Below, piece by piece: positions 1,986 to 31,664 of a stretch of 64,000 bases of DNA. Where the stretch lies: the NCBI GenBank assembly GCA_016935355.1, contig JAFGRC010000158.1, positions 796-64,795 on the forward strand. The letters run 5' to 3'. The notes beneath the pieces are model-generated. The model had not been told where the DNA came from. It made no database searches and saw only the letters and a program-made list of their open reading frames with translations. Numbering within the stretch: the stretch's first letter is position 1; each line of letters opens with the position of its first letter. This DNA comes from Bacteroidales bacterium (GTDB lineage: Bacteria > Bacteroidota > Bacteroidia > Bacteroidales > UBA10428). Both the position numbers and the translations under genes were made by a program.

Positions 1986-2003
1986 ACAGTCAAAGAAACC
2001 CGT

Positions 2004-10812: not shown

Positions 10813-11661
10813 ATGAATGTTTCGGATCAGGATTATCAACTGTTTATATATACATTGAAGACCTTTTCAAAATATGACTTCAGTCTGTATTCCGAAAAAT
10901 CAATGAAGCGAAGGTTGATTAAGGTTATGACTGATAATCAAATGAATATTACAACACTGGTTTCCAGACTAAAAAATGACCAGGCATTCGTTGACAGAGT
11001 CGTGAATGAAATTACCGTAAATACAACCGAGCTATTTCGGGACCCGCAGGTATGGCATACACTTCGCTTTTCAGTTTTACCGAACTTCAGGAACAATTCC
11101 GTGATCAATATATGGCATGCCGGTTGTTCAACCGGCCAGGAAGTTTATTCCATGCTGATTCTGCTGAAAGAACTTAACATGCTGGAAAAAACAAAAATCT
11201 ATGCCACCGATATCAATTCAGATGTACTGAAAGTTGCAAAAACAGGAGAATACAGGTACCGCTTTAACCTGGCTTATCTGGATAATTTTGATAAAGTGAT
11301 AAAAGAAAATCCCTTTAACTATGAAGAATACAATGACGTACCCTATGAAAATTACTTCACAATTGACAAGTCAGCTGACTCCATAAAAATGAATGATTAT
11401 CTGAAAGAAAAACCGGTCTTCAAAAAACACGATCTTGTTACAGAAGACAATACCCATTATATAAAATTTGACCTGATCCTTTGCCGGAATGTGATTATAT
11501 ATTTCAGCTATGAATTGCAATGCAGGGTGTTTGATTTGTTTTATAAAAATCTGTACGATACAGGATGTCTTGTTCTGGGATTGCATGAGAGTATTCTGGG
11601 TACTTATTCGGTGAATTTTCACAAGAAGGGACATGTTTATGTTAAAACTCAAATGTCTTGA
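10813..11661 (+). CDS. CheR-type protein-glutamate O-methyltransferase
   Basis: CheR N-domain, then 'VNTTELFRDPQVW' and the SAM-binding signature 'IWHAGCSTGQEVYSMLILL'. Also 'DLILCRNVIIYF'. Confidence 0.85.
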   Translation: MNVSDQDYQLFIYTLKTFSKYDFSLYSEKSMKRRLIKVMTDNQMNITTLVSRLKNDQAFVDRVVNEITVNTTELFRDPQVWHTLRFSVLPNFRNNSVINIWHAGCSTGQEVYSMLILLKELNMLEKTKIYATDINSDVLKVAKTGEYRYRFNLAYLDNFDKVIKENPFNYEEYNDVPYENYFTIDKSADSIKMNDYLKEKPVFKKHDLVTEDNTHYIKFDLILCRNVIIYFSYELQCRVFDLFYKNLYDTGCLVLGLHESILGTYSVNFHKKGHVYVKTQMS

Positions 11662-11752
11662 TGATTATTACATCAATGAAAAACAACAGATTATATTCAA
11701 CAGTAAGATATATCTTAATGAACATATGACGGTTCTTTAAATATTAAGAAAA

Positions 11753-13930
11753 ATGATATCGAAAAACATCAACTTTTTTAAAGGTAAAATACTGCTTCTG
11801 ATTATATTACTGGCCGTTTATACCGCTTCAATACTTTTGGTAAATGCGCTGTTCAGCATTCCGGAAAGCAGGTCAGCTGAGTACGGTAACCGGATTGAAG
11901 CGACCGGGAAAGACATATTGCGGCTTAAAATCATTCAAAGCGACCTGATGTTACATTACAGGCAGGAAATCAATTCATTTGAATCACAAGCTGATCAGAA
12001 TGCAAATGAAGCTGACGCAACCATGCAAAGGGTTACAAACGAAATCAATGATCTGTCCGGCATCCCTCAATTCCGCAAAGATACTGTATTAAAAAGCCTG
12101 CATGCTTTAGTTGCAGCAAACTTCTCCGCGTATTCCCGCAATTTCAGCGCTTTGTTCAGGGCTGTCCGCGAGAGAGGAAACCTGAATACCGGCCTCATCT
12201 CACAGTGGTTGAATCTGAGCAATCAGATGGATGTTCTTTCTTCGGGTTATAACGGATACACCAGCAATCAACTTTCACGGATCCGGCAATTGGAAATAAA
12301 TTACCTGCAAAGCTTCCAGTCCGGATACCTTGAAACCATATCCGGTATACTTGAAGAAGACATGAGCTTAATTGATTTTGAGCGTACCGGTGTGGCACGG
12401 GAAACTTTCTATGATTATATAACTCTGACAAACAGGCTTATTGAAGTGAACAAACGCATTCAAACACCGGGTGATGAAGGATTATTAACACAACTTTCTC
12501 TTGCTTTCGACGACACATTGAATGATTATAACCGGCTGGTGTCTGCCTTTCAGGAGGATACTGACCGTTCAGCATTTCTTTCAAGATTGACCGGATATTT
12601 GCTGGTGCTGATCATCTTTTCGGCTTGCGTGGTCTGGCTGATGAATGCATCAGTAAAACTGATCGTACAGCCTTTAAGTAAAGCCATTGCTTTTTCCGAC
12701 CAGATTTCCCGCGGCATTTTGCCTGAGAAGGAATTGGAGTTGAAGACCGGTAGCGAATTGGGAATTCTGGCCGGTAAACTGAATCAGGTTGTCTCCAAAA
12801 TGAAGGACAAGCTTTATTTTATTAAAGCCCTGAATGAAAAGAAATTTGATGTTTCATTAACACATATTGATGATCAGGACAAGCTGGGTAATGAATTGCT
12901 GTCGGTGCAGAAAAAGATGGTGGAAACAACTGAAGAACAGGCAAAAAATAACGCAGAGAACATGCGCAGGCGTTATATAAACGAAGGACTGGCACGGTTT
13001 GCCGAGATCCTGAGGATGAACAACAACGATATACATACCCTGGGGGATAACTTCATTCAGAATACTGTCAGGTATCTGAATGCCATACAGGGAGGATTGT
13101 TTTTGCTTAACGAAAACCATAATGAAAAAGCAACACTCAGTCTGGTTGCAGCTTTTGCATATGACAGGAAAAAGTATCTGGAAAAAACAATCGAAATCGG
13201 AGAAGGCCTGATCGGAACCTGCGCAATTGAAAAAAGTACCCTGAATCTGACAGAAATCCCGGAAAGCTATATATCCATCACTTCCGGACTGGGAGATACG
13301 CCTCCCGATAACCTTTTACTGGTTCCGGCTTTACATGAAGATGAGCTTATTGGAGTAATTGAAATAGCCGCCCTAAAAAAATTTCAGGATTTTGAGATCA
13401 CCTTCGTTAACGAAGTGTCCAAAAGTCTGGCGGCCACAATTGTTTATGCCCGCAACAATGAACGGACAACGCAGTTGCTTGCAAAATCACAGCAGCAGGC
13501 TCTTGAAATGGCCGAACAGGAAGAGGAAATGCGTCAAAATATGGAAGAGCTGAAAGCGACCCAGGAAGAATCAACCAGACGGGAAGAAGAGTACAAGGGT
13601 ATGGTGGATGCCATCGGGAATTCGGTGTTTATTGTTGAATATGATCTGCAGGGATGCATTCGCAGTGCAAATGAGAAATTATGCACGTTCCTTGGTAAAA
13701 AGTCTGATGAAATAAGCGGTAAAACTCATCATCAGGTGTTTAAAGGAAATCTGGATCCCGATGAAAGCTTCTGGAAAACGTTATGTGAAAAAACCTGCAA
13801 AACCGCACAGGAAACAATCACATCGGGGAAAAGGAAAGAAATTCTGAAGGAACATTTTGCAGCCGTGTATAAATCGGATGGCGTCCCGGTAAAATTCATG
13901 AATTTCATCATTAAGGTTTCATGTGTATAA
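11753..13930 (+). CDS. Membrane sensor: TM, ~270-aa extracytoplasmic region, TM, HAMP, GAF, Glu-rich coiled coil, PAS; no enzymatic output domain
   Basis: Two hydrophobic helices ('ILLLIILLAVYTASILLV', 'LTGYLLVLIIFSACVVWL'). HAMP-like 'IVQPLSKAIAFSDQISRG...LGILAGKLNQVVSKM'. GAF with 'LIGTCAIEKSTLNLTEIPESYISITSGLGD'. Coiled coil 'EEEMRQNMEELKATQEE'. C-terminal PAS-like ~110 aa. Confidence 0.75.
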   Translation: MISKNINFFKGKILLLIILLAVYTASILLVNALFSIPESRSAEYGNRIEATGKDILRLKIIQSDLMLHYRQEINSFESQADQNANEADATMQRVTNEINDLSGIPQFRKDTVLKSLHALVAANFSAYSRNFSALFRAVRERGNLNTGLISQWLNLSNQMDVLSSGYNGYTSNQLSRIRQLEINYLQSFQSGYLETISGILEEDMSLIDFERTGVARETFYDYITLTNRLIEVNKRIQTPGDEGLLTQLSLAFDDTLNDYNRLVSAFQEDTDRSAFLSRLTGYLLVLIIFSACVVWLMNASVKLIVQPLSKAIAFSDQISRGILPEKELELKTGSELGILAGKLNQVVSKMKDKLYFIKALNEKKFDVSLTHIDDQDKLGNELLSVQKKMVETTEEQAKNNAENMRRRYINEGLARFAEILRMNNNDIHTLGDNFIQNTVRYLNAIQGGLFLLNENHNEKATLSLVAAFAYDRKKYLEKTIEIGEGLIGTCAIEKSTLNLTEIPESYISITSGLGDTPPDNLLLVPALHEDELIGVIEIAALKKFQDFEITFVNEVSKSLAATIVYARNNERTTQLLAKSQQQALEMAEQEEEMRQNMEELKATQEESTRREEEYKGMVDAIGNSVFIVEYDLQGCIRSANEKLCTFLGKKSDEISGKTHHQVFKGNLDPDESFWKTLCEKTCKTAQETITSGKRKEILKEHFAAVYKSDGVPVKFMNFIIKVSCV

Positions 13931-13962
13931 ATTTTGTTTATTATGGTCACATGTAACTCGCG

Positions 13963-14013
13963 ATGAATTTTATTCATACTTGTATATGAATTTAGCATGA
14001 TAAAATTCATGCT
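13963..14013. promoter_or_regulatory. Cluster of overlapping inverted repeats built on ATGAAT/ATTCAT half-sites, inside the che-like cluster
   Basis: ATGAATtttATTCAT at 13963-13977. ATGAATTT(9)AAATTCAT at 13986-14010. AGCATGA(6)TCATGCT at 13994-14013. All lie in the 133-nt gap before the second cheR. Confidence 0.25.
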
Positions 14014-14063
14014 CGTTTCATAACAACATATAATACTGGTTTCTGATACAATTTTGAATTGAT

Positions 14064-14882
14064 ATGAACGAGCTTGGTATTATCCACATCAAAGAAATTG
14101 AACGGACCATAAAAAGCATGCATGAGTATGATTTTTCCGGTTATGCAATGACTTCTTTCAAATACAGGCTCGAAAGACTTATGATGAAATATAACATACA
14201 GGAACCGGAACATCTGATTAAGAAAATACAGGATGAGCCGGATTTCTTTGATAATTTTTTATTCGACATCAGCATTCCCTCAACGGAAATGTTCAGGGAT
14301 CCATCTTTGTGGAGATGGTTGCGTGAAGAGTATTTCACAGAATCCATAGGCAAAAACCCGGGGAAATTTAAAATATGGCTACCGCTTTGTGTGTCGGGAG
14401 GAGAATTGTATTCACTTGCTATTCTATTAAGTGAATTGGAATTGCTTGAACAGGTGCAGATTATAGCGACCAGTATCAGTGCAACCAGTATTGACATCAT
14501 TAAAACCGGACAATATGATCTGAAAAAGATTGCCGTATCAGAAGAGAATTACAACCGGGCAAACGGAATAAAAGAGTTATCAACATATTACACCATTGAT
14601 CGTTACTATGCTTACCTTGACACCTCGTTAATTAAGAACGTTGAATTTAATAAAGTAAATATTATTTTTGATCACTCACCACAAAATGTTAAGCTGATCT
14701 TGTTCAGGAACAGCCTGATATATTATAATCCAAGTCTGCAGGAAAGCATTCTAGGGTTACTGCACAGTTCACTTTCTGCCGGCGGGCATTTGATTGTTGG
14801 AATAAAGGAAATCAATTCATTTCGGGACTTTGAAATCGTCAATGAAGCGGAAAGTGTATATAAAAAAAAGCCAGGCAGGTGA
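14064..14882 (+). CDS. CheR-like methyltransferase paralog with a divergent SAM-binding signature
   Basis: The CheR N-domain and 'STEMFRDPSLW' are conserved. The signature reads 'IWLPLCVSGGELYSLAILL' instead of the '...AGCSTG(E/Q)E...' seen in the first paralog. Confidence 0.75.
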   Translation: MNELGIIHIKEIERTIKSMHEYDFSGYAMTSFKYRLERLMMKYNIQEPEHLIKKIQDEPDFFDNFLFDISIPSTEMFRDPSLWRWLREEYFTESIGKNPGKFKIWLPLCVSGGELYSLAILLSELELLEQVQIIATSISATSIDIIKTGQYDLKKIAVSEENYNRANGIKELSTYYTIDRYYAYLDTSLIKNVEFNKVNIIFDHSPQNVKLILFRNSLIYYNPSLQESILGLLHSSLSAGGHLIVGIKEINSFRDFEIVNEAESVYKKKPGR

Positions 14883-14886
14883 AGTT

Positions 14887-15447
14887 ATGAAATATAAAGC
14901 AGTGATAATAGGTGGATCCGCGGGCAGTTTTCAGGTTGTGACCAAAATCCTGAGTGCCTTGCCGGTTTATTTTCCGTTGCCGATGTTGCTGTGTTTCCAC
15001 AGGTTAAAGCATGTCCGTTCCGGTTTTGTTGAAGCATTGTCGCTTAAATCCCAGATCCCCGTTCTTGAACCGTTCGACAAAGAGCAGCTCAAACCCGGGA
15101 AGGCCTATCTGGCTCCGGCAAATTATCATATGTATGTTGAGCTGGCAAACCGTATTGCCTTATCTACAGAAGATACGGTAAACCATTCAAGACCATCGAT
15201 TGATTTAGCCTTTATCACTGCAGCCAATGCCTACCGTGATAAACTGATCGGGATAATACTCTCAGGGGCCAATAAAGACGGGGCCTTTGGACTAAAAAAA
15301 GTGCATGATAACGGAGGATTGACAGTCGTACAGGATCCCAACGAATGTGAAGTAAAAATGATGACCCAGTCTGCTTTGCAACTTACAAAGGTGGATTTCG
15401 TATATACCACTAACCAGATCATAAACCTGCTGTTACAATTGAAATAA
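14887..15447 (+). CDS. CheB-type protein-glutamate methylesterase, catalytic domain only (no receiver domain)
   Basis: 'AVIIGGSAGSFQ' (Ser motif), 'CFHRLKH' (His region) and 'LSGANKDGAFGLKKV' (Asp motif). ATG at 14887 lies 4 nt after the cheR2 stop. At 186 aa there is no room for a REC domain. Confidence 0.8.
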   Translation: MKYKAVIIGGSAGSFQVVTKILSALPVYFPLPMLLCFHRLKHVRSGFVEALSLKSQIPVLEPFDKEQLKPGKAYLAPANYHMYVELANRIALSTEDTVNHSRPSIDLAFITAANAYRDKLIGIILSGANKDGAFGLKKVHDNGGLTVVQDPNECEVKMMTQSALQLTKVDFVYTTNQIINLLLQLK

Positions 15448-15450
15448 GAT

Positions 15451-16236
15451 ATGTTTAATTTGTTTAAATACAGAAAATTGGGGATAATCATACTGATCGT
15501 GATGATCATATCATTTTTGCTTTCTCTGGTGACATTATGGAATTCTCTGCTTGCAAATGAAACACATCAAGAAGGATGGATCGCGTTGTTCATAGTTTTG
15601 TTATTCGGCAGCGGAATATCCCTGTTTCTGATCCTGCACACACTTACAAACCTGGAGAAATTTGATCTTTATGTACAGCGCCTTCTTGAAAATGAAAAAA
15701 CCCTGATGGAAGTACCAGACAAAGATGAAAAAGAAAATCCTGAAAATGAAGCATCAACGGATATAAATGATGTTGAAAAATCTGTGAAAAAAATATTGAC
15801 CGGTATTGATCCAAAGTCCACAGCGGAGTTGGGCGATCAGCTGCTCAGAAATCTTTCAAAAGAGCTTGATTTTGTTCAGGGCATCATGTATATCAAAGAG
15901 CAGAAAAGTAAAAAATTCATTCCTTCAGGAACATATGCACTTAACAGTCAGGAACCGGAGCCTTTCATCATTGGTGACGGTATTGCCGGGGAAGCCGCAG
16001 AAGGAAAAACCATGATCCGGATCACAGATATTCCCGAAAATTATTTCAATGCTTCTTCAGGATTGGGCGATTCCAAACCTAAACACCTCTTATTCGTACC
16101 TGTCGTGTACAAGAATCAATGTATCGCATTGATTGAAGCCGGATCTTTTAAGAAACCCGACAGGCAAACGGAAAAAGTATTATACGGTTTATCCGTTGAA
16201 ACCGGTAAAACTTTGCATAAATTATTAAATATCTGA
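15451..16236 (+). CDS. Membrane-anchored stand-alone GAF-domain protein
   Basis: Two N-terminal TM helices, an acidic linker, then a GAF with 'ITDIPENYFNASSGLGDSKPKHLLFVPV'. This GAF is paralogous to those of the two flanking sensors. Confidence 0.7.
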   Translation: MFNLFKYRKLGIIILIVMIISFLLSLVTLWNSLLANETHQEGWIALFIVLLFGSGISLFLILHTLTNLEKFDLYVQRLLENEKTLMEVPDKDEKENPENEASTDINDVEKSVKKILTGIDPKSTAELGDQLLRNLSKELDFVQGIMYIKEQKSKKFIPSGTYALNSQEPEPFIIGDGIAGEAAEGKTMIRITDIPENYFNASSGLGDSKPKHLLFVPVVYKNQCIALIEAGSFKKPDRQTEKVLYGLSVETGKTLHKLLNI

Positions 16237-18857
16237 TGAAAAGAATCAGGCTATATCGAATTATTCCAAACGTATTGAATTCCAATGCCGTATTAATGGC
16301 TTTTGCTGCAGGCCTGACCTTTCTTCTGGTTACCTGGATATTTGAATTCATTCATACCAGGACACAAGTTACTTTTTACGGTATCTTAGAGATCCATAAA
16401 AACAATCCTTTGTTATTGATATTCGATTCTCTTCCAGTTTTTTATGTAGTCGTTGTATATGTTTTTGAGCGCCGCATTAATAAGGAAAAAATCCTGTCTG
16501 AGTCAAGGTTCACCGAGCTTGAAGAACGCATGAACGCAATGGCAGATTTCGCACAACAGATCGGTCAGGGGAATTACCAGGCAAATCTTAACATTAAAAA
16601 TGATCATGATATTCTGGCTGAATCACTTGTACACATGCGGGACAACCTGATTGAAACCACAAGGAAAGAATCTGACCAAAGCTGGATTGCTGCGGGTAAG
16701 GACAGCATATCCAATTTGCTTCGTATGCATAATAAGATCGATGAACTGGCCAAAAATATTATCAGGGATCTTGTGAATTACATCAAAGCTGTTCAGGGTG
16801 CCATGTATATTTATAACGAAGATAAAAAAACGCTGACCAATATTGCAACATATGCATACAACCGGAACAAGCATGTTTCTCAGGAAATAAATGTCGGTTA
16901 TGGACTGATCGGGGAATGCGCATACGAAATGGACTATATATACCGGACTGAAATTCCCGATGATTATTTTACCATAAATTCCGGCATTCTGGGACAGCAA
17001 AAGCCACAGAGTATGCTGCTGATCCCTTTGATCACGGATGAAAAGCTTCAGGGTGTGATGGAGTTTGCTTCACTCGAAGACCGGATTCCTGAACTTACCA
17101 TACAATTACTGAATGAACTCGGAGAAATCATTGCCCGCACCATTTTCAATCTTAAAGTTACGCAACGGACGGAGAAACTGCTCACGGAATCACAGCAAAT
17201 GACACTTGAATTACAGGAGAATGAGGAAGAATTGCGCCAGAATGCCGAAGAAATGAGGGCTACTCAGGAAGAATTACAGAAGTCAAATGAGCAGCTTGAA
17301 AGTAAGATACTTGAAGTTGAAAATGCTCAGAAAAGGCAATATTCATTGCTGGAAAATGCTTCAGAGATCATATCCATTTATGATGAGAACATGTCCATGA
17401 AGTATGTGAGTCCATCCGTAATCAAAATACTGGGATTCACACCTGAGGAAATGATGCACGGAAAGGATATTGACAGGCTCACAAGAAAAGGGGAAGGAAG
17501 CATGCGCAGCATGTTTACCGAATTGATTGAAGATCCCGAAAAACCAGTTACCATCCAGTACACTTACATGAAGCAGAATGGACAGAAAATATTTCTGGAA
17601 ACCACCGGAAGAAACCTGCTCCATGATGCTGCCATTGGCGGGATCATATTAAATTCCACTGACATAACTGAACGGAAGCGGGCTGAACGGGAAGAAAGAT
17701 TAAAAAGCAAAATGCAGGCTTTATCGGAAAATTCACTGGATCTGATCATTCGCCTGAGCACCGTGGGACAATTCTTTTATGCAAATCCGGTTGTTAAGAA
17801 TTTTATCGGGATCGATCCTTCCGAACTGATAAACAAAACGCTGCAGGAAATAAGCTGCAATGAAAAACTGCTTCAATATTTTAAAGAAACTATTGAAACC
17901 ATCAAATCCAATCCCGATAAGACCTCGGCTGAATTAACCATTCCCGGTGTGATTGACGGTGCAGAAAGTGACAGGATCATGCAATTTGCAGCCATTCCTG
18001 AATTTAACGAAAGTGAGCTGGAAACCATTCTTTTCGTAGGCCATGATATCACTGAAGCCAAGCAAATAGAACTTGAAATACAGGATAAAAACAGAAAGAT
18101 AGAAGATTCCATTAATTACGCCCAGCGCATTCAAAGTTCCATACTTCCTGAGATCAGGCAGGTCAGGGAACTTTTGCCAAAATCATTTATTTACTATAAA
18201 CCAAGGGATGTTGTCAGCGGTGATTTCCCATGGTTTTTCTCGCATGGCAATGATGTGTATATTGCAGCCGTTGATTGTACCGGACATGGTGTGCCGGGTG
18301 CCCTGCTTTCTTTTGTTGGATATTTTCTCCTGAATAATATTGTGGATCATGACCGGAAGTTATCTGCTTCTGAAATATGTGACATGCTGCATCGCGGCGT
18401 TCGGAAAACCCTTAAGCAGGAAAGTCAGGATGCGGAAGCACGGGACGGAATGGATATCGCTTTTTGTAAAATAAGTCATACAGAAAAAGAAGTACAGTAT
18501 GCAGGAGCGCACAGACCGCTTTATCTGCTGCGTAATGGTGAACTGACCGAATTCAAGGGTAACCGTAAAGCCATCGGCGGCATACCCCACAGGAAAAAAG
18601 AGGAGGAAGATTTTACAAATTATGTCATCAAATACAAGCGAGGAGATAAAATTTTCTTCTTTTCCGATGGATTACCTGATCAGCTTGGTGGTCCGGAAAG
18701 CAAAAAATACTCACCAAAGCGCATTCGTGAAATGATCCTTGAAAATAAAGATCTTCCCATTGAAGAATACAACCGTCTATTTTCCAATGATTTTGAACAA
18801 TGGAGAGGAGACGGAAAACAAATAGATGACGTACTTTTAATTGGAATCGAATTTTAA
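16236..18857 (+). CDS. Membrane sensor phosphatase: TMs, HAMP-like, GAF, Glu-rich coiled coil, 2x PAS, PP2C/SpoIIE Ser/Thr phosphatase (SiaA/RsbU-like)
   Basis: GAF with 'RTEIPDDYFTINSGILGQ'. Coiled coil 'ENEEELRQNAEEMRATQEELQKSNEQLE'. PAS blocks. SpoIIE motifs 'AQRIQSSILP', 'VSGDFPWF', 'DCTGHGVPGALLS', 'FFFSDGLPDQ', 'QIDDVLLIGIEF'. The start overlaps the upstream stop (TGATG). Confidence 0.85.
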   Translation: MKRIRLYRIIPNVLNSNAVLMAFAAGLTFLLVTWIFEFIHTRTQVTFYGILEIHKNNPLLLIFDSLPVFYVVVVYVFERRINKEKILSESRFTELEERMNAMADFAQQIGQGNYQANLNIKNDHDILAESLVHMRDNLIETTRKESDQSWIAAGKDSISNLLRMHNKIDELAKNIIRDLVNYIKAVQGAMYIYNEDKKTLTNIATYAYNRNKHVSQEINVGYGLIGECAYEMDYIYRTEIPDDYFTINSGILGQQKPQSMLLIPLITDEKLQGVMEFASLEDRIPELTIQLLNELGEIIARTIFNLKVTQRTEKLLTESQQMTLELQENEEELRQNAEEMRATQEELQKSNEQLESKILEVENAQKRQYSLLENASEIISIYDENMSMKYVSPSVIKILGFTPEEMMHGKDIDRLTRKGEGSMRSMFTELIEDPEKPVTIQYTYMKQNGQKIFLETTGRNLLHDAAIGGIILNSTDITERKRAEREERLKSKMQALSENSLDLIIRLSTVGQFFYANPVVKNFIGIDPSELINKTLQEISCNEKLLQYFKETIETIKSNPDKTSAELTIPGVIDGAESDRIMQFAAIPEFNESELETILFVGHDITEAKQIELEIQDKNRKIEDSINYAQRIQSSILPEIRQVRELLPKSFIYYKPRDVVSGDFPWFFSHGNDVYIAAVDCTGHGVPGALLSFVGYFLLNNIVDHDRKLSASEICDMLHRGVRKTLKQESQDAEARDGMDIAFCKISHTEKEVQYAGAHRPLYLLRNGELTEFKGNRKAIGGIPHRKKEEEDFTNYVIKYKRGDKIFFFSDGLPDQLGGPESKKYSPKRIREMILENKDLPIEEYNRLFSNDFEQWRGDGKQIDDVLLIGIEF

Positions 18858-18880
18858 TAATATAGTAAAACCAAGCGAAT

Positions 18881-19462
18881 ATGGACAAAAAACCAGATGT
18901 TAAAGGCTTTCTTGAGTTTGTATACGAGTTTTATAAAACCATGAAAGCTCACGAAATAACCCTGGTATATGAGGGTGAAATTACGCATCAGATTACTAAA
19001 GCTTTTACATCGCTCACGGAATCAAACATGTCTAAAGATGATGAACCCAATTCAGTGCAGCGGCGGGTATTTCATGTAATGGTCGAATGCCTGCAAAATA
19101 TAAGCAAACACGCTGATGATTTTACTTCACATGATTATTTGTTTTCGGGGAGGGGCATATTCCTGGTAAGCAAAGGTGAAAATGAATACAGTGTTACAAC
19201 CGGCAATGCTGTGGAAAACGACAAGATCGGATACCTGACCGATTTGTTGGAGAGCATCAACACAATGGGGAAGGAAGAGCTTAAAGAGCTTTACAAAAAA
19301 CAGATGAAAGAAGGGAGGCTTTCGGAAAAAGGCGGTGCCGGACTGGGATTCATCGACATTAAAAGAAAAACCAACAGAGAGCTGGAATATCACTTTTTAC
19401 CCATTACAAATGATACTTCGTTTTTTCTGTTAACATCAACCATTTCAAGATCTGATATTTAA
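18881..19462 (+). CDS. SiaB/RsbW-like HATPase-fold Ser/Thr protein kinase
   Basis: 193 aa. N-box-like 'VMVECLQNISKHAD' and G-rich lid 'SEKGGAGLGFIDIKRK'. It sits between a PP2C phosphatase and a DUF1987 gene, as in siaABC. Confidence 0.7.
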   Translation: MDKKPDVKGFLEFVYEFYKTMKAHEITLVYEGEITHQITKAFTSLTESNMSKDDEPNSVQRRVFHVMVECLQNISKHADDFTSHDYLFSGRGIFLVSKGENEYSVTTGNAVENDKIGYLTDLLESINTMGKEELKELYKKQMKEGRLSEKGGAGLGFIDIKRKTNRELEYHFLPITNDTSFFLLTSTISRSDI

Positions 19463-19466
19463 AATT

Positions 19467-19850
19467 ATGAGAGATATGGAAACAATTAAAATTCAAGGTA
19501 CGGAAGATACACCAAGAATTATACTGGATGCTGAAAATGATATTTTGGAAATTTCCGGACGATCATTACCGGAGGATGTGGCAGCATTTTATGAACCGGT
19601 GTTGAACTGGCTGAAAGACTATGGTGAAAATCCAAAAGATAAAACCATATTCAACTTTAAGCTGACGTACTTCAATACGGCTTCTTCCAAACTTCTCCTT
19701 GACATCCTGATGATTCTGGAAGAGCTGAAAGAAAAAGGGAATGATATACTGATCAGATGGCATTATCCTGAGGAAGATGAGGACATGGAAGAAGCCGGTG
19801 ATGAATATGCGGATATCGTGGATGTCCCATTTGAAAAAGTATCTTATTGA
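19467..19850 (+). CDS. DUF1987 / SiaC-like regulatory phosphoprotein
   Basis: 127 aa. 'IKIQGTEDTPRIILDAENDILEISGRSLPEDVAAFYEPVLNWL' and 'FNFKLTYFNTASSKLLLDIL' match the DUF1987 pattern. The tail is acidic. Confidence 0.75.
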   Translation: MRDMETIKIQGTEDTPRIILDAENDILEISGRSLPEDVAAFYEPVLNWLKDYGENPKDKTIFNFKLTYFNTASSKLLLDILMILEELKEKGNDILIRWHYPEEDEDMEEAGDEYADIVDVPFEKVSY

Positions 19851-19911
19851 TCCGGGTCATATCATCTTTTTCAATCCGGTTGTTTACTTCCTAAATAAAT
19901 CTGCCGTCTGA

Positions 19912-22900
19912 ATGAGCGAAGAGATTCTGAGAGCGTTAATGCAACTTTTTGCAATCATTGCAAAACAGGATGAAGGCGTTGAATCGACTCAGGAAGAGTA
20001 CGTAAAAAATTTTTTACATCAACAACTTAATGATGATGCCGTTAAAGAATACTTTGCGCTTTTTCAGCAATATGCCGGTCTGAATGGCCAGGATAATGAT
20101 GTTGAAAATGAAGAAGATAAAGGATCCCGTAAATTAACTTCCGTAAAGGATTCTGTACGTATACTCGGCCTATGCAAAAAAATCAACAAAACCTTAACCC
20201 AGAAACAGAAAATTGTTGTTCTTGTCAGACTGTTTGAAATAGTAAATGCGGATCGTAAGTTCACCGGCCAGCGCATGCAAATCATCAATACTGTTGCAGA
20301 TGTATTCAAAGTCAACAAAGAAGAATTTTCCAGCATTGAATCGTTTGTAGTCCACAATGAACTTGAATATCTTAACGATGTCAATGTTTTGATTATTAAT
20401 GATAAGAACATTGCATACAGACATGCAAAGAAAATTAGTACGAAACAGCTTGACGGGAATATATACATACTGCGAATAAACAGTGTCGATCTTTATTTTC
20501 TAAAATATTCAGGTACTGAAGATTTATTTCTGAACGGATTACCGGTAAGGAACGACCGCGTCTATCTTTTTGCCAACGGGAGTGCGGTCAGGTTGCCCAA
20601 GGCATCGCCCGTTTATTACAGTGATGTGGTCTCCCATTTTCTTGCCGATCTTGTTACGAACCAGATCTCCTATGTCGCCAGGAATCTGCAGTTCACCTTC
20701 CCGAACGGAAATATTGGATTGCACGATATCAGCTTTTCCGAAACACACGGTCGTCTAATCGGAATAATGGGAGCCAGTGGTGCCGGCAAGACAACATTGC
20801 TGAATGTGCTCTGTGGAGTTGAAGAGCCCTCAAGGGGGGAAGTCTGGATCAACGGAATAAACCTGCACAAAGAAAGGCAAAAGCTTGAAGGAGTAATTGG
20901 TCTTGTACCCCAGGATGACCTGCTTATTGAAGAGCTTACAATATATCAGAACCTTTACTACAACGCTAAACTTTGTTTCAAAGACAAATCGGAACAGGAC
21001 ATTGATCAATTGGTTATCAAGACATTACAAAACCTGGGACTGTATGATAAGAAAGATTTAAAGGTAGGTTCCCCGTTGAAAAAAATTATCAGCGGCGGTC
21101 AGCGAAAAAGGCTTAACATTGCCCTGGAGCTTATTCGCGAACCTTCTATATTATTTATTGATGAGCCGACATCGGGCCTTTCATCACGTGATTCCGAAAA
21201 TGTGATGGACCTGCTTCGCGAACTTGCACTTAAGGGCAAGCTTATTTTCGTTGTCATTCATCAGCCTTCCTCAGAGATCTACAAGATGTTCGACAAAATG
21301 ATCATTCTTGATGCTGGGGGATATCTGATTTATTACGGAAATCCGGTTGAGGCCGTTATGTATTTTAAGCGCAAGGACGCCCAGATCAACAGTGAATTCG
21401 GAGAATGTCCCACATGCGGTAACGTTAATCCGGAATTGATCTTCAATATCATTGAAGCCAAAGTAGTCGATGAATTCGGTAATTATACGGACACCCGAAA
21501 GGTTACTCCGGTCCGGTGGGAAGAACATTATAAAGACTCTTTTCAGTACTCAGAAATAAAACCTGTTACAGATTCTCCTCCGAAAAACCTTAAAATTCCG
21601 GACTGGATTAGTCAGTTGAAAATATATACACTGCGTGATTTTTTATCAAAAATCAGCAACCGGCAGTACGTATCACTGAGTTTGCTCGAAGCCCCGATTC
21701 TGGCTTTTATTCTTTCAATTATCATCCGGTATATCGAAGATCCCAAATCCTCCCAATATATTTTCAGACTGAATGAAAATATACCCATATTTGTTTTCAT
21801 GGCCCTGATCGTAGCGCTTTTCCTGGGATTGACCGTCAGCGCCGAGGAGATTTTCAGGGACCGGAAGATTCTGAAAAGGGAAGCCTTCCTGAACCTGAGC
21901 CGTTCCAGTTACCTCGTATCCAAAGTATTCATCTTGTTTGGCATATCAGCGATTCAGGCTTTTCTTTTTGTCGTGATAGCCAATAGTATTCTCGGGATCC
22001 GGAATATGGGTCTTTACTACTGGCTGGCACTATTCTCAACGGCTGCTTTTGCCAATATGCTCGGACTTAACATTTCAGCTTCCTTCAATTCCGCTGTGAC
22101 CATATACATCCTGATACCATTGGTTATGATACCGATGATGATACTTAGCGGGGCAATGTTTAGTTTTGACAAGCTGAACCGCAATTTCAGCAGGGTCGAT
22201 AAGGTTCCTCTGATTGCTGAGTGCATGGTTACAAAATGGTCTTATGAAGCCCTTATGGTAAACCAGTATAAGAACAACAGGTTCCTGAAATCAAAACTTT
22301 ATGAGATTGATAAAGAAGAAAGCCAGGCTGATTATAAAAAAGTTTACTGGCTTCCGGAGCTTTATGAGCGTCTGGAAAGAATAAATATGGAACTGGCCAG
22401 CAAGAACAGCATTGAACTGTCCGCAAATGACGTGATCCTGATTTCCAACGAAATCATAAAAGAATCTTCTTTAAACAAAGAAGTGGCTGCTTTCAATAAT
22501 ATTGATGACCTGAATCCTGTAAATTTTGACCTGCAGACTTCGGATGCCGTGTTTGAATATCTGCAGGCGCTCGATCAATACTATGGAGAAAAATTCCAGA
22601 AAATCATCCGCGTTAAGGAGAACTACATTAATTACTGGCTTGAAAATGACCCTGAAACATACAATAATACCAGAGACCAGTACCACAATGAGGGAGTTTC
22701 CGACATAGTCAGGAAAGTATATGAAAAAAACAAAATTCTTGAATTTAACCACCAGCTTATCCAGCATTATGACCCTATTTACGACGATCCATATGTGGTA
22801 AACCGGTTAACGGTCAGGACACACTTTTATGCTCCTGAGAAGCCTTTTCTGGGCAGGACATATGATACCTTCTGGTATAATATTATTGTAATCTGGCTGT

Positions 22901-22986
22901 TGACTTCCATTCTTTATCTTTCATTGTATTATTCATGGTTGAAAAAGATAACCGGTCTTTTTGAGCGATTTAAACGCAAAAGTTGA
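19912..22986 (+). CDS. Fusion protein: TerB-like N-terminal domain, beta-rich linker domain, ABC ATPase, ABC-2-type permease, long C-terminal extension with a terminal TM
   Basis: TerB-like 'ILRALMQLFAIIAKQDEGV...' duplicated with 'VVLVRLFEIVNADRKFTGQ'. Walker A 'GIMGASGAGKTTLLN', signature 'ISGGQRKRLNIA', Walker B 'ILFIDEPTSGLS' and H-loop 'VVIHQPS'. About 6 TM helices follow. Confidence 0.8.
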   Translation: MSEEILRALMQLFAIIAKQDEGVESTQEEYVKNFLHQQLNDDAVKEYFALFQQYAGLNGQDNDVENEEDKGSRKLTSVKDSVRILGLCKKINKTLTQKQKIVVLVRLFEIVNADRKFTGQRMQIINTVADVFKVNKEEFSSIESFVVHNELEYLNDVNVLIINDKNIAYRHAKKISTKQLDGNIYILRINSVDLYFLKYSGTEDLFLNGLPVRNDRVYLFANGSAVRLPKASPVYYSDVVSHFLADLVTNQISYVARNLQFTFPNGNIGLHDISFSETHGRLIGIMGASGAGKTTLLNVLCGVEEPSRGEVWINGINLHKERQKLEGVIGLVPQDDLLIEELTIYQNLYYNAKLCFKDKSEQDIDQLVIKTLQNLGLYDKKDLKVGSPLKKIISGGQRKRLNIALELIREPSILFIDEPTSGLSSRDSENVMDLLRELALKGKLIFVVIHQPSSEIYKMFDKMIILDAGGYLIYYGNPVEAVMYFKRKDAQINSEFGECPTCGNVNPELIFNIIEAKVVDEFGNYTDTRKVTPVRWEEHYKDSFQYSEIKPVTDSPPKNLKIPDWISQLKIYTLRDFLSKISNRQYVSLSLLEAPILAFILSIIIRYIEDPKSSQYIFRLNENIPIFVFMALIVALFLGLTVSAEEIFRDRKILKREAFLNLSRSSYLVSKVFILFGISAIQAFLFVVIANSILGIRNMGLYYWLALFSTAAFANMLGLNISASFNSAVTIYILIPLVMIPMMILSGAMFSFDKLNRNFSRVDKVPLIAECMVTKWSYEALMVNQYKNNRFLKSKLYEIDKEESQADYKKVYWLPELYERLERINMELASKNSIELSANDVILISNEIIKESSLNKEVAAFNNIDDLNPVNFDLQTSDAVFEYLQALDQYYGEKFQKIIRVKENYINYWLENDPETYNNTRDQYHNEGVSDIVRKVYEKNKILEFNHQLIQHYDPIYDDPYVVNRLTVRTHFYAPEKPFLGRTYDTFWYNIIVIWLLTSILYLSLYYSWLKKITGLFERFKRKS

Positions 22987-23059
22987 ATATTATTAATAAC
23001 TAATTTTTAATATGCACATTTCAATCATTATTTTTACAGAAATAAACAAAATATTGACC

Positions 23060-23959
23060 ATGCTGAAAAAAATACTGTATTTCTACATTCTGTTACTCTT
23101 TGTAGTCGCCTGCAAATCAGGCGATCAGGGCAGGGATACCGGCCTGGCCATTCCTGATTCAGTATTAAATGAGGGACTGGAAATTTCCCAGGATGTCATG
23201 CAGAATATTGTACAGAACATTTCCTCACCTGTTGAGATGGCTGCTTTAATAAAAGAGCTCGGTGTTGATTTTTCAAACAGGTATATTTCCACGACCGACA
23301 GGGTCGACAATCTTTCAACCAGCTTTCAACAGGCCCTGAACCTTGGCATATATGGAGCTGATCTCGGTTATCTGAACATGTATAACAAAACTTCATCCGT
23401 GATCGACTATATATCGGCAATAAAGACGCTTGCCGATGCGATCAAGGTAGGTCAGTTCTTTGATTTTACAACACTGAAAAGACTCGCCACCAACAGCAAG
23501 AACCTCGATTCCCTGATGTATATCTCGGTGCATAGTTTCAACCAGATGGACCAATATCTCCATAATAACAACCGTACAAACCTGAGCGCTCTTATTATCA
23601 CGGGTGTGTGGATTGAAGGTTTATATCTGGGCACACAGGTTTACCAGAGTGCACCAAACGAAATTCTGGCAGAAAGGATAGGCGAACAAAAGCTGACGCT
23701 TGAACAACTGATGCTTATCCTTGAGAACTATACAAGGGAAAGGCAATATGAAAACCTGTTGAACGAGCTTAAGCTCATAAAGAATATATACCAGGGTGTA
23801 ACCATCAGTATTGAAAAAGGAGAACCTGAAATGATCGAAGAAAACGGTATGCTGACCATAGTTCAAAACGACAAAAGCATTATCGATATTACACCTGAGC
23901 AGCTTACTGAAATCGCTGAAACCACTGAGCAAGTCCGTAACAGAATAATCACCCTATAG
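23060..23959 (+). CDS. Hypothetical lipoprotein
   Basis: Lipobox-like 'LLLFVVACKSGD' after the ATG at 23060. The upstream in-frame start at 23012 is less likely. I recognise no family. Confidence 0.55.
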   Translation: MLKKILYFYILLLFVVACKSGDQGRDTGLAIPDSVLNEGLEISQDVMQNIVQNISSPVEMAALIKELGVDFSNRYISTTDRVDNLSTSFQQALNLGIYGADLGYLNMYNKTSSVIDYISAIKTLADAIKVGQFFDFTTLKRLATNSKNLDSLMYISVHSFNQMDQYLHNNNRTNLSALIITGVWIEGLYLGTQVYQSAPNEILAERIGEQKLTLEQLMLILENYTRERQYENLLNELKLIKNIYQGVTISIEKGEPEMIEENGMLTIVQNDKSIIDITPEQLTEIAETTEQVRNRIITL

Positions 23960-23960
23960 C

Positions 23961-24407
23961 ATGACATACAAGAAATTTATCGCAGTTTGTACAACGTACA
24001 TATTTTCTGCATGTATGCTGATCCATGCGCAGGACATTTCCCAGCTTACAGCGCAATGTGCAGCAAATGCAGGTGATGTAATGTATTTGAAAGACTTTGT
24101 TGTAAAACTTGACCCGGGCACCCCTGGCGGTGCTCCACCGACAGCAAGATATGCCCTTCTTCTGAGTAAAAATGTTGTCTACAGGTTCTCGATCTGTACC
24201 GCTCCCAATTCCGAAGGTGAAGCAGTGCTGCAATTGTTTGACATGAATACGATGCTCGGAAGCACTTTTGTCACTTCCACAGGAAAAGATTACCCGTACT
24301 TTGACTTCAAATGTCAGAAGACCGGGGTGTACCATGTTTTTATTTCCTTTAAGGAAGGCAAAGCCGGCGAGGGAGTGGGCATCATGTCATACGTCAAGAA
24401 ACTGTAA
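23961..24407 (+). CDS. Small secreted hypothetical protein
   Basis: 148 aa with signal peptide 'FIAVCTTYIFSACMLIHAQ'. It starts 1 nt after the previous stop, suggesting co-transcription. Confidence 0.5.
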   Translation: MTYKKFIAVCTTYIFSACMLIHAQDISQLTAQCAANAGDVMYLKDFVVKLDPGTPGGAPPTARYALLLSKNVVYRFSICTAPNSEGEAVLQLFDMNTMLGSTFVTSTGKDYPYFDFKCQKTGVYHVFISFKEGKAGEGVGIMSYVKKL

Positions 24408-25854: not shown

Positions 25855-28800
25855 CTAATACAGTCTGTATTCCAGTTCCCTGTTTTCGGTCAGGTAATCA
25901 AACAGCTCATTTGAAAGGGCAATTTTTTTGTACCGGCTGAACATTTCCACACTGACGTTTTCAGTCTGGTCATACACCAGAACTTTCATATTCGCGTTCC
26001 CTTTTTCTTTGCCAACAAATTCGCTGATCTCAGATACCAGTTCGTCATTAAGTCTTTCAATTGGTATTCTGATCTGTATGTTATGGATCAGTTCATCCCT
26101 CACTGAGCTCAGCATGAATATTTCTTTTATTTTAAATTCCAGCTCCACGGGTTTTTTCCATGTATTATCCTGAATTACTCCTTTCAGCAACAAAGAATAG
26201 CCTTCATACATGTATTTCCTGAAGTTTTCATAATCCTTGTTAAATAATGTGAAGGTGTAATAATCGGTGTAATCTTCAATGGTAAATGAACCATATGGTT
26301 TGCCGTTTTTTGTCGTTGCATGCTTTACTTTGGTGACCATGCCTGCAGTTTTAAGTTCTTTATCCCTTAATGGCACAAGGTCACGCAGTTCAGCAAGAGA
26401 TACATCGCAGAACTGCTGCATTTCAATTTTAAAATGATCCAGGGGATGGGCTGACAGGTAGATTCCGATCACTTCTTTTTCCTGATTCAGGGTGACCAGC
26501 GGAGACCATTCTTCCGTTTCAGGTGGCTTTGGCTTCAGCACTTCAATTGTATCAAGGTCTCCGAAAAGTGTAGGTGTAGACACATTCTGGCTCTGAACCT
26601 TATTTCCATACCGGATCAGCTGCTCAATAAAGCTTGAACCGTTTTCCTGACTGTCAAAGTACTGATAGCGCTTAAAATCATGGAAACTGTCAAAACCTCC
26701 GCTCACAGCAAGTGCCTCCAGACAACGCTTATTTACAATCGTCAGGTTCACCCTTTCAACAAGGTCGTATATGTTATTAAAGAGTCCTCCCTGCTTTCGG
26801 ACTTCTATGATATGCTCTACCGCAGATTCTCCCACACCCTTAATCGCTGCAAGTCCAAAACGTATATTTCCATCAGTGTTAACGGTAAATCTGGCATAAC
26901 TTTCATTTACGTCAGGCACCAGTACGTTGAGTCCCATTCGCTTGCATTCATCCATGAAGAAACCGATCTTTTTGATATCGTTAATATTCCGGCTCAGGAC
27001 CGCTGCCATGAATTCTGCAGGATAATGTGCTTTCAGATAGGCTGTCTGATAAGAAATATAAGCATAACATGTCGAATGCGACTTGTTAAAGGCATAATGT
27101 GCAAATGATTCCCAATCCTTCCATATTTTTCGTACTATATTCGGATCATGTCCGTTTTTAACGCAACCTTCTTCAAATTGTGCCTGTAAATCAGTCATCA
27201 TGGCGACTATCTTCTTTCCCATAGCCTTTCGCAGTGAATCTGCCTTACCCTTGCTGAATCCTGCAAGCAACTGGGAAAGCAGCATGACCTGCTCCTGATA
27301 AACGGTTATGCCATAGGTATCTTTAAGATAAGCCTCCATTTCAGGTATGTCGTATGCAATCTCCTCTTTACCGTGCTTCCGGTTTATATAGCTCGGGATG
27401 TAATCCATTGGACCCGGCCGGTATAACGCATTCATTGCGATGAGATCTTCAAAACGGTTGGGTTTCAGCGATTTCAAATACTTTTTCATGCCTTCGGATT
27501 CAAACTGGAATAAACCCGTAGTTTCGCCTCTGCTGTATAATTCATAAGTTAACTGATCATCCAGAGGGACTGAATTGATGTCGATCTCTATATTTTTTGA
27601 GATTTTAATGTTTTCAAGCGTATCCTTAATAATGGAAAGCGTTTTCAGTCCCAAAAAATCCATTTTAAGCATTCCGACAGATTCAATATGTGCCCCCTCA
27701 TATTGAGTTACATTCAGTTCCGCATCTTTGCTCCGGCAAATCGGAATATATTCCTCCAGATTGTCCCTTCCTATGATAATGCCGCAGGCATGAACACCGG
27801 TCTGACGTACCGAACCTTCGAGCACTTCTGCATATTTAAGTGTAGTTGCAATAAGTTCATTTGAAGATGTTTTTTCTTCCTGCAAAGCCGGTACTTTCTC
27901 ATATGCATCGTTGAAAGTAGTTCCCGGTGTGTCCGGGATCAGTTTTGCAAGCCGGTCAGCTTCAGCCAGATCCAGCCTTTGTACACGGGCAACATCGCGA
28001 ATCGCCATTTTAGGAGCCATTGTTCCGAATGTTATGACATGCGCAACCCGGTCAGCACCATACTTTTTCACCACGTACTGAAGCACTTTTTCCCGCCCGT
28101 CTTCGTCAAAATCAATATCAATATCGGGCATTGAAACGCGGTCGGGATTTAAAAATCGTTCAAACAGAAGATCGTACTGGATCGGATCAATATCAGTGAT
28201 CTTTAAACAGTATGCCACTACCGAACCGGCAGCTGAACCCCGGCCGGGACCAACAGAAACACCCATTTCACGCGCTGCTCTGATAACATCCCATACGATC
28301 AGAAAGTAACCCGGATACCCCATTTTGCTGATGGTCTCAAGTTCAAAATCAATTCTTTCCCTGATTCTTTCGTTTATTTGAGGATAACGGACATTTGCGC
28401 CCTGATAAGTAAGAAAATGCAAATATTCATGTGCGTCCCTGAATCCCTCAGGTATTGGAAAATCAGGCATAATAGGATCGCTGTTCAGCTCATAATACTC
28501 AACTTTCTCCTCTACTTCACGGGTATTGGCAATGGCTACAGGCACATCTTTAAAAAGCTCTTTCATTTCCTGCTGAGTTTTCAGCCATTCCTGGTGCGTA
28601 TACCGCATTCTGGTCGGATCATCCATGTCCTTACCCGTACTGATGCACAGCAAACGGTCATGCGCAAGGGCATCCTCCTTATTTATAAAATGCACATCAT
28701 TGGTAGCCACGCATTTAATACCTGTTTCGGCCGATAATTCCAGCAGACTTTTATTCACGAAAACCTGGTTTTCATATACTTCGCGATCAATTTCCGGACT

Positions 28801-31007: not shown

Positions 31008-31664
31008 TCAAGGGCCGGTCTTTCTTTTAAAACTGACAGGTTGACCGGTTGCGTTCATCTCAATTACATCCATCAGAATGAGATTTACCAGAATATGCTC
31101 CGCCTGTTCCGGACTGATCCTGGCTATTTTCAAAAATTTTGAAAAAGAGATCTCATCATGATCTTCCAGGTAATCAACAAGTGCTTTCTCTTCCTTATTA
31201 TAACTCAGAAATGCGCTCCTCTTCTTACTTGTGTTCTTCCATACGGACACCATTACCCGGTCTGCCTGCATATTCTGATCTCCTACCCGCATATATGCAA
31301 TCCATTTGCCTTTTTCATCCTGTGCATAATGTGGCCGCAATGTACTTTGGGGTATTTCAACCTCAAGTACCCATTTGCCTTCTACAAACCACTTCTTTAT
31401 GCGAAATGAAACCTCCGGATGACAATAGATTCGTGCAGCGGTTTCAACCATGTATGCTTCCTCATCACTTTGTATCCCGCTGATCTTGCCATTATCCTTA
31501 ACGCCGATCAATAATTTACCTCCGGTGGTATTGGAAAAAGCCGATAACGTCCGGGCAATTTTTTTTGCATCACTGATTTCAAATTTAAAATCAAGCTGTT
31601 GTCCCTCCCCTGAAAGAATCAGTTTCCTGATATACCGGAGCGATTTATGGGGATCAGGTTTCAT
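31008..31664 (-). CDS. AlbA_2 (Schlafen-related) putative DNA-binding domain protein with a C-terminal winged-helix-like region
   Basis: 'GEGQQLDFKFEISDAKKIARTLSAFSNTTGGKLLIGVKDNGKISG' is the typical AlbA_2 core. Confidence 0.6.
   Translation of the reverse strand: MKPDPHKSLRYIRKLILSGEGQQLDFKFEISDAKKIARTLSAFSNTTGGKLLIGVKDNGKISGIQSDEEAYMVETAARIYCHPEVSFRIKKWFVEGKWVLEVEIPQSTLRPHYAQDEKGKWIAYMRVGDQNMQADRVMVSVWKNTSKKRSAFLSYNKEEKALVDYLEDHDEISFSKFLKIARISPEQAEHILVNLILMDVIEMNATGQPVSFKRKTGP

Follow-up and report, generated by a model that had tools for sequence, protein, structure and literature searches.

We analyzed a 64,000-nt stretch of a Bacteroidales bacterium genome (contig JAFGRC010000158.1; hereafter the window), in which CheR- and CheB-type enzymes lie together with GAF-domain sensors and a SiaA/SiaB/SiaC-type switch. 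The genes form one block of 11 co-directional open reading frames (ORFs) on the plus strand at positions 10813-24407, in the order CheR1, Sens2, CheR2, CheB, TM-GAF (TM, transmembrane), SiaA-like PP2C phosphatase, SiaB-family kinase, SiaC, TerB-ABC, a lipoprotein and a small protein (Table 1). Successive genes are separated by 91, 133, 4, 3, -1, 23, 4, 61, 73 and 1 nt, as computed with the ATG at 14887 as the start of CheB and Met-17 (23060) as that of the lipoprotein. The initial annotation of this DNA spoke of twelve genes; the actual count is 11, as in its own list, and the ORFs, the short gaps and the larger gaps of 91 and 133 nt that it reported were reproduced. Its enzyme and domain assignments were confirmed by Pfam and NCBIfam searches of the window ORFs, which found GAF domains in three proteins of the block and PAS domains in two. 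Of its TM-HAMP calls, the TM positions hold and the HAMP part is tentative (HAMP_2 at E=0.023, and a 1.6e-6 match to NarQ over its TM2-HAMP region). A scan of the sequence for sigma-70 promoters and terminators did no better than on shuffled sequence and is uninformative for Bacteroidota.

Table 1. Genes of the block and the two candidate methyl-accepting helices, with positions in the window.
Feature	Position	Strand	Basis and remarks
CheR1	10813..11661	+	PF01739 3.8e-37; weak CheR_N
Sens2, accessory membrane sensor	11753..13930	+	GAF and PAS, without output domain
Sens2 candidate methyl-accepting S-helix	13448..13600	+	motif, heptad ladder, conservation
CheR2	14064..14882	+	PF01739 1.5e-23; weak CheR_N
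CheB	14887..15447	+	PF01339 2.8e-47; 186 aa, catalytic domain only
TM-GAF protein	15451..16236	+	GAF_2 7.5e-9; two TM segments, no coil
SiaA-like sensor phosphatase	16236..18857	+	SpoIIE 3.7e-17
SiaA-like phosphatase candidate methyl-accepting S-helix	17148..17315	+	E/Q ladder, EEMRAT
SiaB-family Ser/Thr kinase (DUF6272)	18881..19462	+	PF19788 1.1e-40
SiaC-family regulatory phosphoprotein (DUF1987)	19467..19850	+	PF09345 8e-42
TerB-ABC exporter, candidate output	19912..22986	+	TerB, ABC_tran and ABC2_membrane
Predicted lipoprotein	23060..23959	+	ORF opens at 23012; lipobox LFVVAC; no Pfam hit
Small protein with N-terminal signal-like segment	23961..24407	+	no Pfam hit; co-conserved

Three consecutive genes of the block encode proteins related to SiaA, SiaB and SiaC of Pseudomonas aeruginosa. 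The SiaA-like protein comprises two TM segments, a linker, a GAF domain (residues 168-303), a signaling helix (S-helix, 305-360), two PAS domains and a PP2C domain (660-873), which matches P. aeruginosa SiaA (6K4E) at 3e-32 and keeps the metal-binding Asp motifs in 58-59 of 59 orthologs. The kinase, the most conserved gene of the set (about 87-92% identity), reaches 168 bits with NF038262 (SiaB_fam_kinase), for which the cutoff is 85, and matches chain A of 6KKO at 4e-11. SiaC matches chain C of the same structure at 3e-16, and its Thr71, in the motif YFNTASS, aligns with Thr68 of P. aeruginosa SiaC and is invariant in all 53 orthologs. Scores with the NCBIfam equivalog models lie below the cutoffs (SiaA 165 vs 700, SiaB 75 vs 225, SiaC 87 vs 150). 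Judged by these matches, the jointly encoded PP2C phosphatase, SiaB-type kinase and DUF1987 protein are a genuine SiaA/SiaB/SiaC-type switch; a GGDEF domain, as in a SiaD-type target, was not found in the window ORFs. The initial annotation had tied the methylation pair to a Ser/Thr partner switch, and gene linkage, the PDB matches and the conserved phospho-Thr agree with it. A second, orphan DUF6272 (SiaB-family) gene was observed at positions 40537-41088 of the plus strand (4.5e-27; 26% identical to the kinase of the block), between a gene for an LTD/CHU_C surface protein and fumarate reductase genes. It has DVSARVG in place of the GGAGLG segment and no adjoining SiaC or PP2C gene.

The two CheR genes differ in their predicted activity. 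CheR1 aligns over its full length with Bacillus subtilis CheR (5FTW) at 1.5e-29, and its S-adenosylmethionine (SAM) motifs IWHAGCSTGQE, ATD and CRNVIIYF are conserved, with the SAM-ribose Asp kept in all 58 orthologs; it is predicted to be an active CheR-type glutamate methyltransferase. CheR2 retains the TEMFRD and RNxLIYYN motifs and a basic N-terminal helix. The SAM-binding acidic residue after strand beta-2, which we take to be Asp154 in Salmonella CheR, is replaced in CheR2 by S, Y, C, V, T or A in 61 of 61 orthologs, none having Asp or Glu, and the Cys, Ser and Glu positions of motif I are degenerate. Because of this loss in all orthologs and the degenerate motif I, CheR2 is probably a pseudo-methyltransferase, that is, a divergent CheR paralog without catalytic function. 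CheB, in which Pfam detects no receiver domain along its 186 residues, aligns to 3SFT and 1CHD. Its catalytic triad is intact (Ser11 in 67 of 68 orthologs, His38 and Asp131 in all 68), and it is predicted to be an active methylesterase/deamidase. The closest relatives of this CheB are all annotated as Bacteroidales metagenome-assembled genomes (78-94% identity), and most of them are stand-alone proteins of ~190 aa. Other relatives are fusions, namely CheR-CheB (P0239/P0282), CheB-REC-HisKA-HATPase (P0273, 589 aa) and CheB-REC-SpoIIE (P0208, 608 aa).

Candidate substrates for these enzymes are found in the two coil-bearing sensors. Sens2 consists of a TM segment (5-37), a periplasmic domain of ~235 aa, a second TM segment (273-306), a HAMP-like segment, a GAF domain (426-563), an S-helix with a Glu/Gln (E/Q) ladder (566-616) and a PAS domain (612-715). 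In both Sens2 and the phosphatase, the S-helix signature N-x-R/K-T-x-x-L-L directly follows the GAF domain, and both ladders extend over four heptads in which position a is L/M, position d is polar (N/N/T/S) and f,g are [EQ][EQ]. The Sens2 helix reads NNERTxxLL...SQQQAxEMAEQEEEMRQNMEELKATQEESxRREEE, with EE pairs at residues 591/592, 598/599, 605/606 and 612/613, and that of the phosphatase NLKxNQRTEKLL...NEE(E/Q)LRQNAEEMRATQEELxKSNE(Q/H/K)LE, with E/Q pairs at 331/332, 338/339, 345/346 and 352/353. The Sens2 ladder segment is invariant in 37 orthologs and represents the top-conserved 20-aa window of the protein (0.93, the whole protein averaging 0.53). At position 332 of the phosphatase, 33 of 59 orthologs have E and 21 have Q; chemoreceptor methylation sites are likewise encoded as Glu or Gln. 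Moreover, EELKAT in Sens2 (residue 598) and EEMRAT in the phosphatase (residue 338) match EExxA(S/T), reportedly the classical chemoreceptor methylation consensus of Terwilliger and Koshland; the background rate of [EQ][EQ]xx[AS][ST] is 0.38 sites per 1000 aa. Among the window ORFs of at least 200 aa, the heptad E/Q ladder is confined to Sens2 and the SiaA-like protein, and no other protein of the block contains an [EQ][EQ]xx[AS][ST] site or such a ladder. This chemoreceptor-like Glu/Gln ladder could accept methyl groups and is regarded here as a candidate. The initial annotation had proposed the GAF sensors as methyl acceptors; the ladder in both coil-bearing sensors fits that proposal, and the methylation step itself we infer.

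The gene following SiaC encodes a protein that combines a TerB domain (residues 8-142) with an ABC ATPase and an ABC-2 permease; a beta-rich region lies at about 170-230, and the last TM segment is in a C-terminal extension. The gene is syntenic in 46 loci, and the lipoprotein gene is co-conserved with it. An FHA-like domain in the beta-rich region is no more than speculation, as there was no Pfam hit and the best PDB profile match, to the FHA domain of Mek1, was non-significant (E=0.89); a single-sequence AlphaFold (AF2) model of the region (predicted local distance difference test score of 46.5) was too poor for a fold search. In one long-read assembly (L001, 15034-18110), TerB forms an ORF of its own (108 aa), followed by an ABC protein of 862 aa; the split may be genuine or due to a frameshift in the assembly.

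A scan of species-representative genomes yielded 68 Bacteroidales/Bacteroidota loci related to the block. All ten core genes are present in 40 of them, 39 times in identical order, and most of the other loci are cut by contig ends; the same ten-gene order is also kept in the more distant locus L077. Given such synteny over ~68 species-level genomes, the association of these genes is not due to chance. The neighborhood check suggested by the initial annotation thus had a positive outcome, with cheR, cheB, GAF, SpoIIE, siaB and siaC genes co-occurring in syntenic order across many loci of uncultured Bacteroidales. Protein identities across the related loci range from about 35% to about 87%, with medians of 87% for SiaB, 83% for CheB, 81% for SiaC, 71% each for ABC, SiaA and CheR1, 59% for CheR2 and 35% for TM-GAF, and ~40% for Sens2. 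Judging from these values, the enzymes are strongly constrained and the sensors diverge fast. The fast-evolving TM-GAF protein (TM segments at 4-36 and 41-68) is always present. Seven loci (L050, L056, L057, L062, L063, L069 and L070) have no Sens2 gene between CheR1 and CheR2, so this sensor is dispensable to the set. In L060, L064 and L068, a gene for a PAS-PAS-HisKA-HATPase-REC hybrid kinase follows SiaC and replaces the ABC exporter. The initial annotation had named the TerB-ABC transporter as a candidate output: adjacency, which is the whole basis of the assignment, and synteny speak for it, and the hybrid histidine kinase found in its place in some relatives speaks against it.

Neither profile searches for MCPsignal, CheW, Hpt, HisKA, Response_reg and GGDEF in the window ORFs of at least 130 aa nor tblastn searches of the 64-kb window with Bacteroidales methyl-accepting chemotaxis protein (MCP), CheA, CheW, CheY, STAS and CheD sequences (E<=0.01) gave a match. 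Similarly, CheA, CheW and CheD are absent within 10 kb on either side in 67 of the 68 related loci. The earlier statement that the block has no CheA, CheW or MCP therefore stands for the window and for these 67 loci, and it fails in a sister Bacteroidales/Marinilabiliaceae lineage, which has a complete Che operon upstream. In this lineage (L071, 1-14819; L078, 6857-22157; L079, 6921-22070), the genes lie on the same strand and with small gaps directly downstream of an operon of the order DUF4154-MCP-STAS-CheY-CheA-CheW-CheW-CheR-HATPase-CheD-CheB(REC), the canonical CheR not being called in L079. They comprise a TM-GAF-coil-PAS-PAS sensor, CheR1, CheR2, CheB, a TM protein and the SiaA-like PP2C; a GAF domain in the TM protein and a SiaB-like gene were seen in L071. 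Such composite operons show an evolutionary, and perhaps also a functional, tie between the set and Che pathways.

We further scanned metagenomes for the E/Q ladder and obtained 80 loci, of which 15 are of the type described here, one is composite, three are otherwise linked to CheB or CheR and 61 make up the rest. In L142, CheB is followed by a GAF-coil-PAS3 protein; in L153, a dCache-GAF-coil gene is convergent with CheB; and L148 has CheB, PP2C and two HAMP-GAF-coil proteins, each adjoining a CheR and ending about 30 aa past the ladder. As far as these searches reach, the ladder is a widespread element whose presumed link to methylation is not exclusive. When the coil alignment was used as a search profile, all hits were fragments of 34-111 aa, and the three that were examined lie among fragmented, frameshift-like gene calls. 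Five loci (L095, L097, L100, L103 and L109) contain coil-bearing ORFs of ~560-573 aa that end 33-40 aa after the ladder. These sensors adjoin a SiaC-like gene on the opposite strand, with no CheR, CheB or PP2C gene within reach, and look like another link of ladder-bearing sensors to SiaC-type switches. In L105, L131, L132 and L145, the ladder-bearing ORFs are longer (921-928 aa, with about 282 aa beyond the ladder), and a PP2C tblastn match lies in the locus on the opposite strand, about 4 kb from the coil.

Taken together, we propose a CheA-independent sensory module built around a SiaA/SiaB/SiaC-type switch, with a CheR/CheB methylation layer and a neighboring output, a reading to which we give roughly an even chance of being correct. 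In this module, the SiaA-like phosphatase and the SiaB-family kinase, assigned by computed homology, would set the phosphorylation of SiaC Thr71. CheR1 would methylate, and CheB demethylate or deamidate, the Glu/Gln pairs on the post-GAF S-helix of the phosphatase and Sens2, with the catalytically degenerate CheR2 perhaps serving as an adaptor. Modification of the S-helix would tune the passage of GAF and transmembrane signals to the PAS-PP2C output, and methylation would serve the Ser/Thr switch as a covalent set-point or memory, as in chemoreceptors and in the RsbM/RsbK system. Motif, conservation, gene neighborhoods and the RsbM precedent together point to this methylation step, and we also count in its favor P0208, in which CheB, REC and SpoIIE are on one polypeptide. 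Finally, SiaC in one of its phospho-forms would bind and regulate what the following gene encodes, here the TerB-ABC exporter, partnered by the lipoprotein and the secreted protein, a step that we infer from adjacency alone.

Several observations weigh against this module. The sister lineage physically joins it to a Che operon, and the negative results for the window cover 64 kb. No CheR or CheB is found within the available DNA at 61 of the 80 ladder loci, and since the ladder is so widespread without these genes nearby, the coil may be conserved for signal transmission alone. Each sensor has only one full EExxA(S/T) site, and the S-helix is expected to be a parallel dimeric coil and not the antiparallel four-helix bundle usual for CheR and CheB. 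The TM-GAF protein belongs to the invariant core yet lacks the coil and has no assigned role. The ABC link is based on a 61-nt gap and synteny, and some relatives lack the ABC gene or have another in its place, L071 having neither SiaC nor ABC gene. The first of these points would be explained if CheR1, CheR2 and CheB were ordinary adaptation enzymes for MCP/CheA arrays encoded elsewhere in the genome, their co-location reflecting co-regulation or ancestry and not a common substrate. CheA is indeed frequent in Marinilabiliaceae and in Bacteroidales of gut and rumen, and its family is populous in metagenomes from these habitats; a receiver-less CheB also serves true CheA pathways, e.g., in the F3 class (PMC9239204). 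However, the composite operons own CheR, CheD and CheB-REC, so that a second set for the same MCP would be redundant, and the presence of both complete sets in a single operon speaks for different substrates. The module CheRs are also divergent, being 28% and 24% identical to the canonical CheR encoded in the composite operon. CheA, CheW and CheD are absent within 10 kb of 67 of the 68 module loci, and the gaps of 4, 3 and -1 nt to the GAF and PP2C genes point to translational coupling. We regard a role of these enzymes in the adaptation of distant arrays as quite improbable.

At least as improbable, in our view, is that the S-helix acts as a transmission element only and that CheR1 and CheB modify SiaC, SiaB, TM-GAF or the TerB-ABC protein. 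The many coil-bearing sensors without nearby CheR or CheB and the coil-less but invariant TM-GAF protein would be accommodated in this way, and SiaC has an acidic C-terminal tail. On the other hand, chemoreceptor genes often lie far from cheRB, so ladder loci without these genes neither prove nor disprove action in trans. No other module protein offers a comparable site or ladder, and at L142, L153 and L148 CheB or CheR adjoins GAF-coil proteins that stop ~30 aa past the ladder and are without a PP2C, SiaC or ABC partner. In addition, the RsbK precedent puts methylation on such a helix (PMC4574943). The remaining alternative, which we consider somewhat unlikely, divides the block into two or three independent same-strand units (CheR/CheB with the sensors; SiaABC; ABC with its two small partners), the ABC protein not being the output. 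The gaps of 61 nt before the ABC gene and 73 nt before the lipoprotein gene, the hybrid histidine kinase after SiaC in L060, L064 and L068, and the gene content of L071 are consistent with such a division, but the ten-gene order is kept in 39 loci of wide divergence and in the distant L077. Moreover, DUF1987 proteins were proposed to modulate the product of an adjacent gene (PMC8457831), and the swap of the ABC gene for another signaling protein, the hybrid kinase, fits a logic in which SiaC regulates its neighbor.

A stronger version of the proposed module, which we put forward only tentatively, is a full reversible glutamate-methylation unit without CheA, CheW or MCP, acting on the parallel S-helix of GAF sensors, among them one fused to a PP2C phosphatase, with the switch gating an ABC exporter. 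In such a unit, an active CheR and a receiver-less CheB would be joined by a pseudo-CheR as adaptor, and the partner switch would gain a chemotaxis-like memory. The same enzymes might in addition act in trans on the numerous GAF-coil sensors that have the QEEEMRQNMEELxATQEE ladder. Glutamate methylation counts as a hallmark of chemoreceptor arrays, and the only studied exception found in our literature searches is the one-way methylation of RsbK in Bacillus cereus. If the proposal is correct, reversible CheR/CheB adaptation chemistry would have moved both onto a different receptor scaffold, the GAF-S-helix sensor, and onto a different output, the PP2C/SiaB/SiaC partner switch, across a large group of Bacteroidales that are non-flagellated and for the most part uncultured. 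It would suggest a function for many stand-alone CheB and CheR genes in genomes apparently without chemotaxis and provide a searchable candidate methyl-accepting motif, and the targets of SiaC-type switches would widen from diguanylate cyclases to transporters and histidine kinases.

The block is flanked by a nitroreductase gene upstream and DUF6427 and DnaE genes downstream, all on the minus strand. An anti-phage defense role was rejected, PADLOC having matched generic ABC ATPase models only. Elsewhere in the window, DNA polymerase III alpha (25855-30084, minus strand; 1409 aa) has an N-terminal RNase_T-type exonuclease fused to PHP, polymerase core, HHH and OB domains. The gene at 31008-31664 (minus strand), isolated between thioredoxin and TPR protein genes, encodes a Schlafen/AlbA_2-domain protein whose C-terminus is weakly PCI-like. 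At 3-2924 (plus strand), a gene for an SprB-repeat/CHU_C type IX secretion substrate is followed by a PorP/SprF gene; by these genes, the window is part of a Bacteroidota genome with a predicted type IX secretion system.

In E. coli and Salmonella, chemoreceptors such as Tar and Tsr adapt through CheR and CheB. The module shares with this system the enzyme families, the catalytic residues of CheR1 and CheB, the heptad Glu/Gln pairs, the EExxA(S/T) sites and the alternation of E and Q. Unlike Tar and Tsr, its substrate candidate lacks an MCP signaling domain and is probably a parallel dimer instead of a four-helix bundle; CheA and CheW are missing as well. As its CheB lacks the receiver domain, the module would also have no phospho-feedback. 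Che-like pathways can feed partner switches, an example being the Che1 system of Shewanella oneidensis, which is reported to be linked to RpoS regulation (PMC9855816). In this class, chemotaxis-type parts likewise control a partner switch and not motility, and the composite operons of L071, L078 and L079, with their STAS and HATPase genes, resemble it. Che1-type systems need CheA phosphotransfer, in contrast to the module in the window, which has no CheA, CheW or receiver domain.

With P. aeruginosa SiaABCD (6K4E, 6KKO, 7E6G; PMC8457831), the module shares a membrane PP2C, a SiaB kinase, a DUF1987 protein with the same acceptor Thr and the gene order A-B-C, and in both cases the output is thought to be the product of a neighboring gene (PMC8457831). 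In SiaABCD this neighbor is the diguanylate cyclase SiaD, whereas in the module it is the TerB-ABC exporter. The module phosphatase, moreover, has a GAF domain, an S-helix and two PAS domains, and CheR/CheB and two GAF proteins are added to the set.

Our literature searches for CheR/CheB combined with SiaABC or GAF found nothing except the RsbK/RsbM precedent. In B. cereus, the CheR-type enzyme RsbM methylates the S-helix after the GAF domain of RsbK (CHASE3-HAMP-GAF-S-helix-HK-CA-REC), which represses sigma-B activation via the PP2C protein RsbY and the RsbV/RsbW switch; RsbM has no cognate methylesterase (PMC4574943). RsbK-like kinases occur in ten phyla (PMC4574943; PMC12848376), and RsbK is genomically associated with CheR, a CheR homolog being mentioned (PMC12848376). 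Since RsbM methylates a post-GAF S-helix upstream of a PP2C partner switch, the principle is already established (PMC4574943), and the initial annotation, whose author knew of no characterized system with this wiring, needs correction on this point. Like RsbK-RsbM-RsbY, the module places a CheR-type gene beside a membrane sensor with HAMP, GAF and S-helix elements, without CheA or CheW, and S-helix methylation would set signaling through a PP2C and a phosphorylation-based partner switch; the S-helix of RsbK is likened to the module ladders by its description. The two systems differ in that RsbK is a hybrid histidine kinase signaling to a separate REC-PP2C protein, whereas in the module sensor and PP2C form one polypeptide and the His-Asp step is missing, Pfam finding no HisKA, HATPase or REC domain in the module sensors. 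They also differ in the switch, which is RsbW/RsbV with a sigma factor in one case and of the SiaB/SiaC type in the other. RsbM is an orphan, whereas the module adds a degenerate second CheR and a dedicated receiver-less CheB, by virtue of which the modification would be reversible. By this analogy, the module is best read as a reversible variant of the RsbK/RsbM methylatable signaling helix and not as a wholly new system; its new elements are the receiver-less CheB, the degenerate second CheR, the PP2C-sensor fusion, the SiaB/SiaC switch and a transporter as the likely target.

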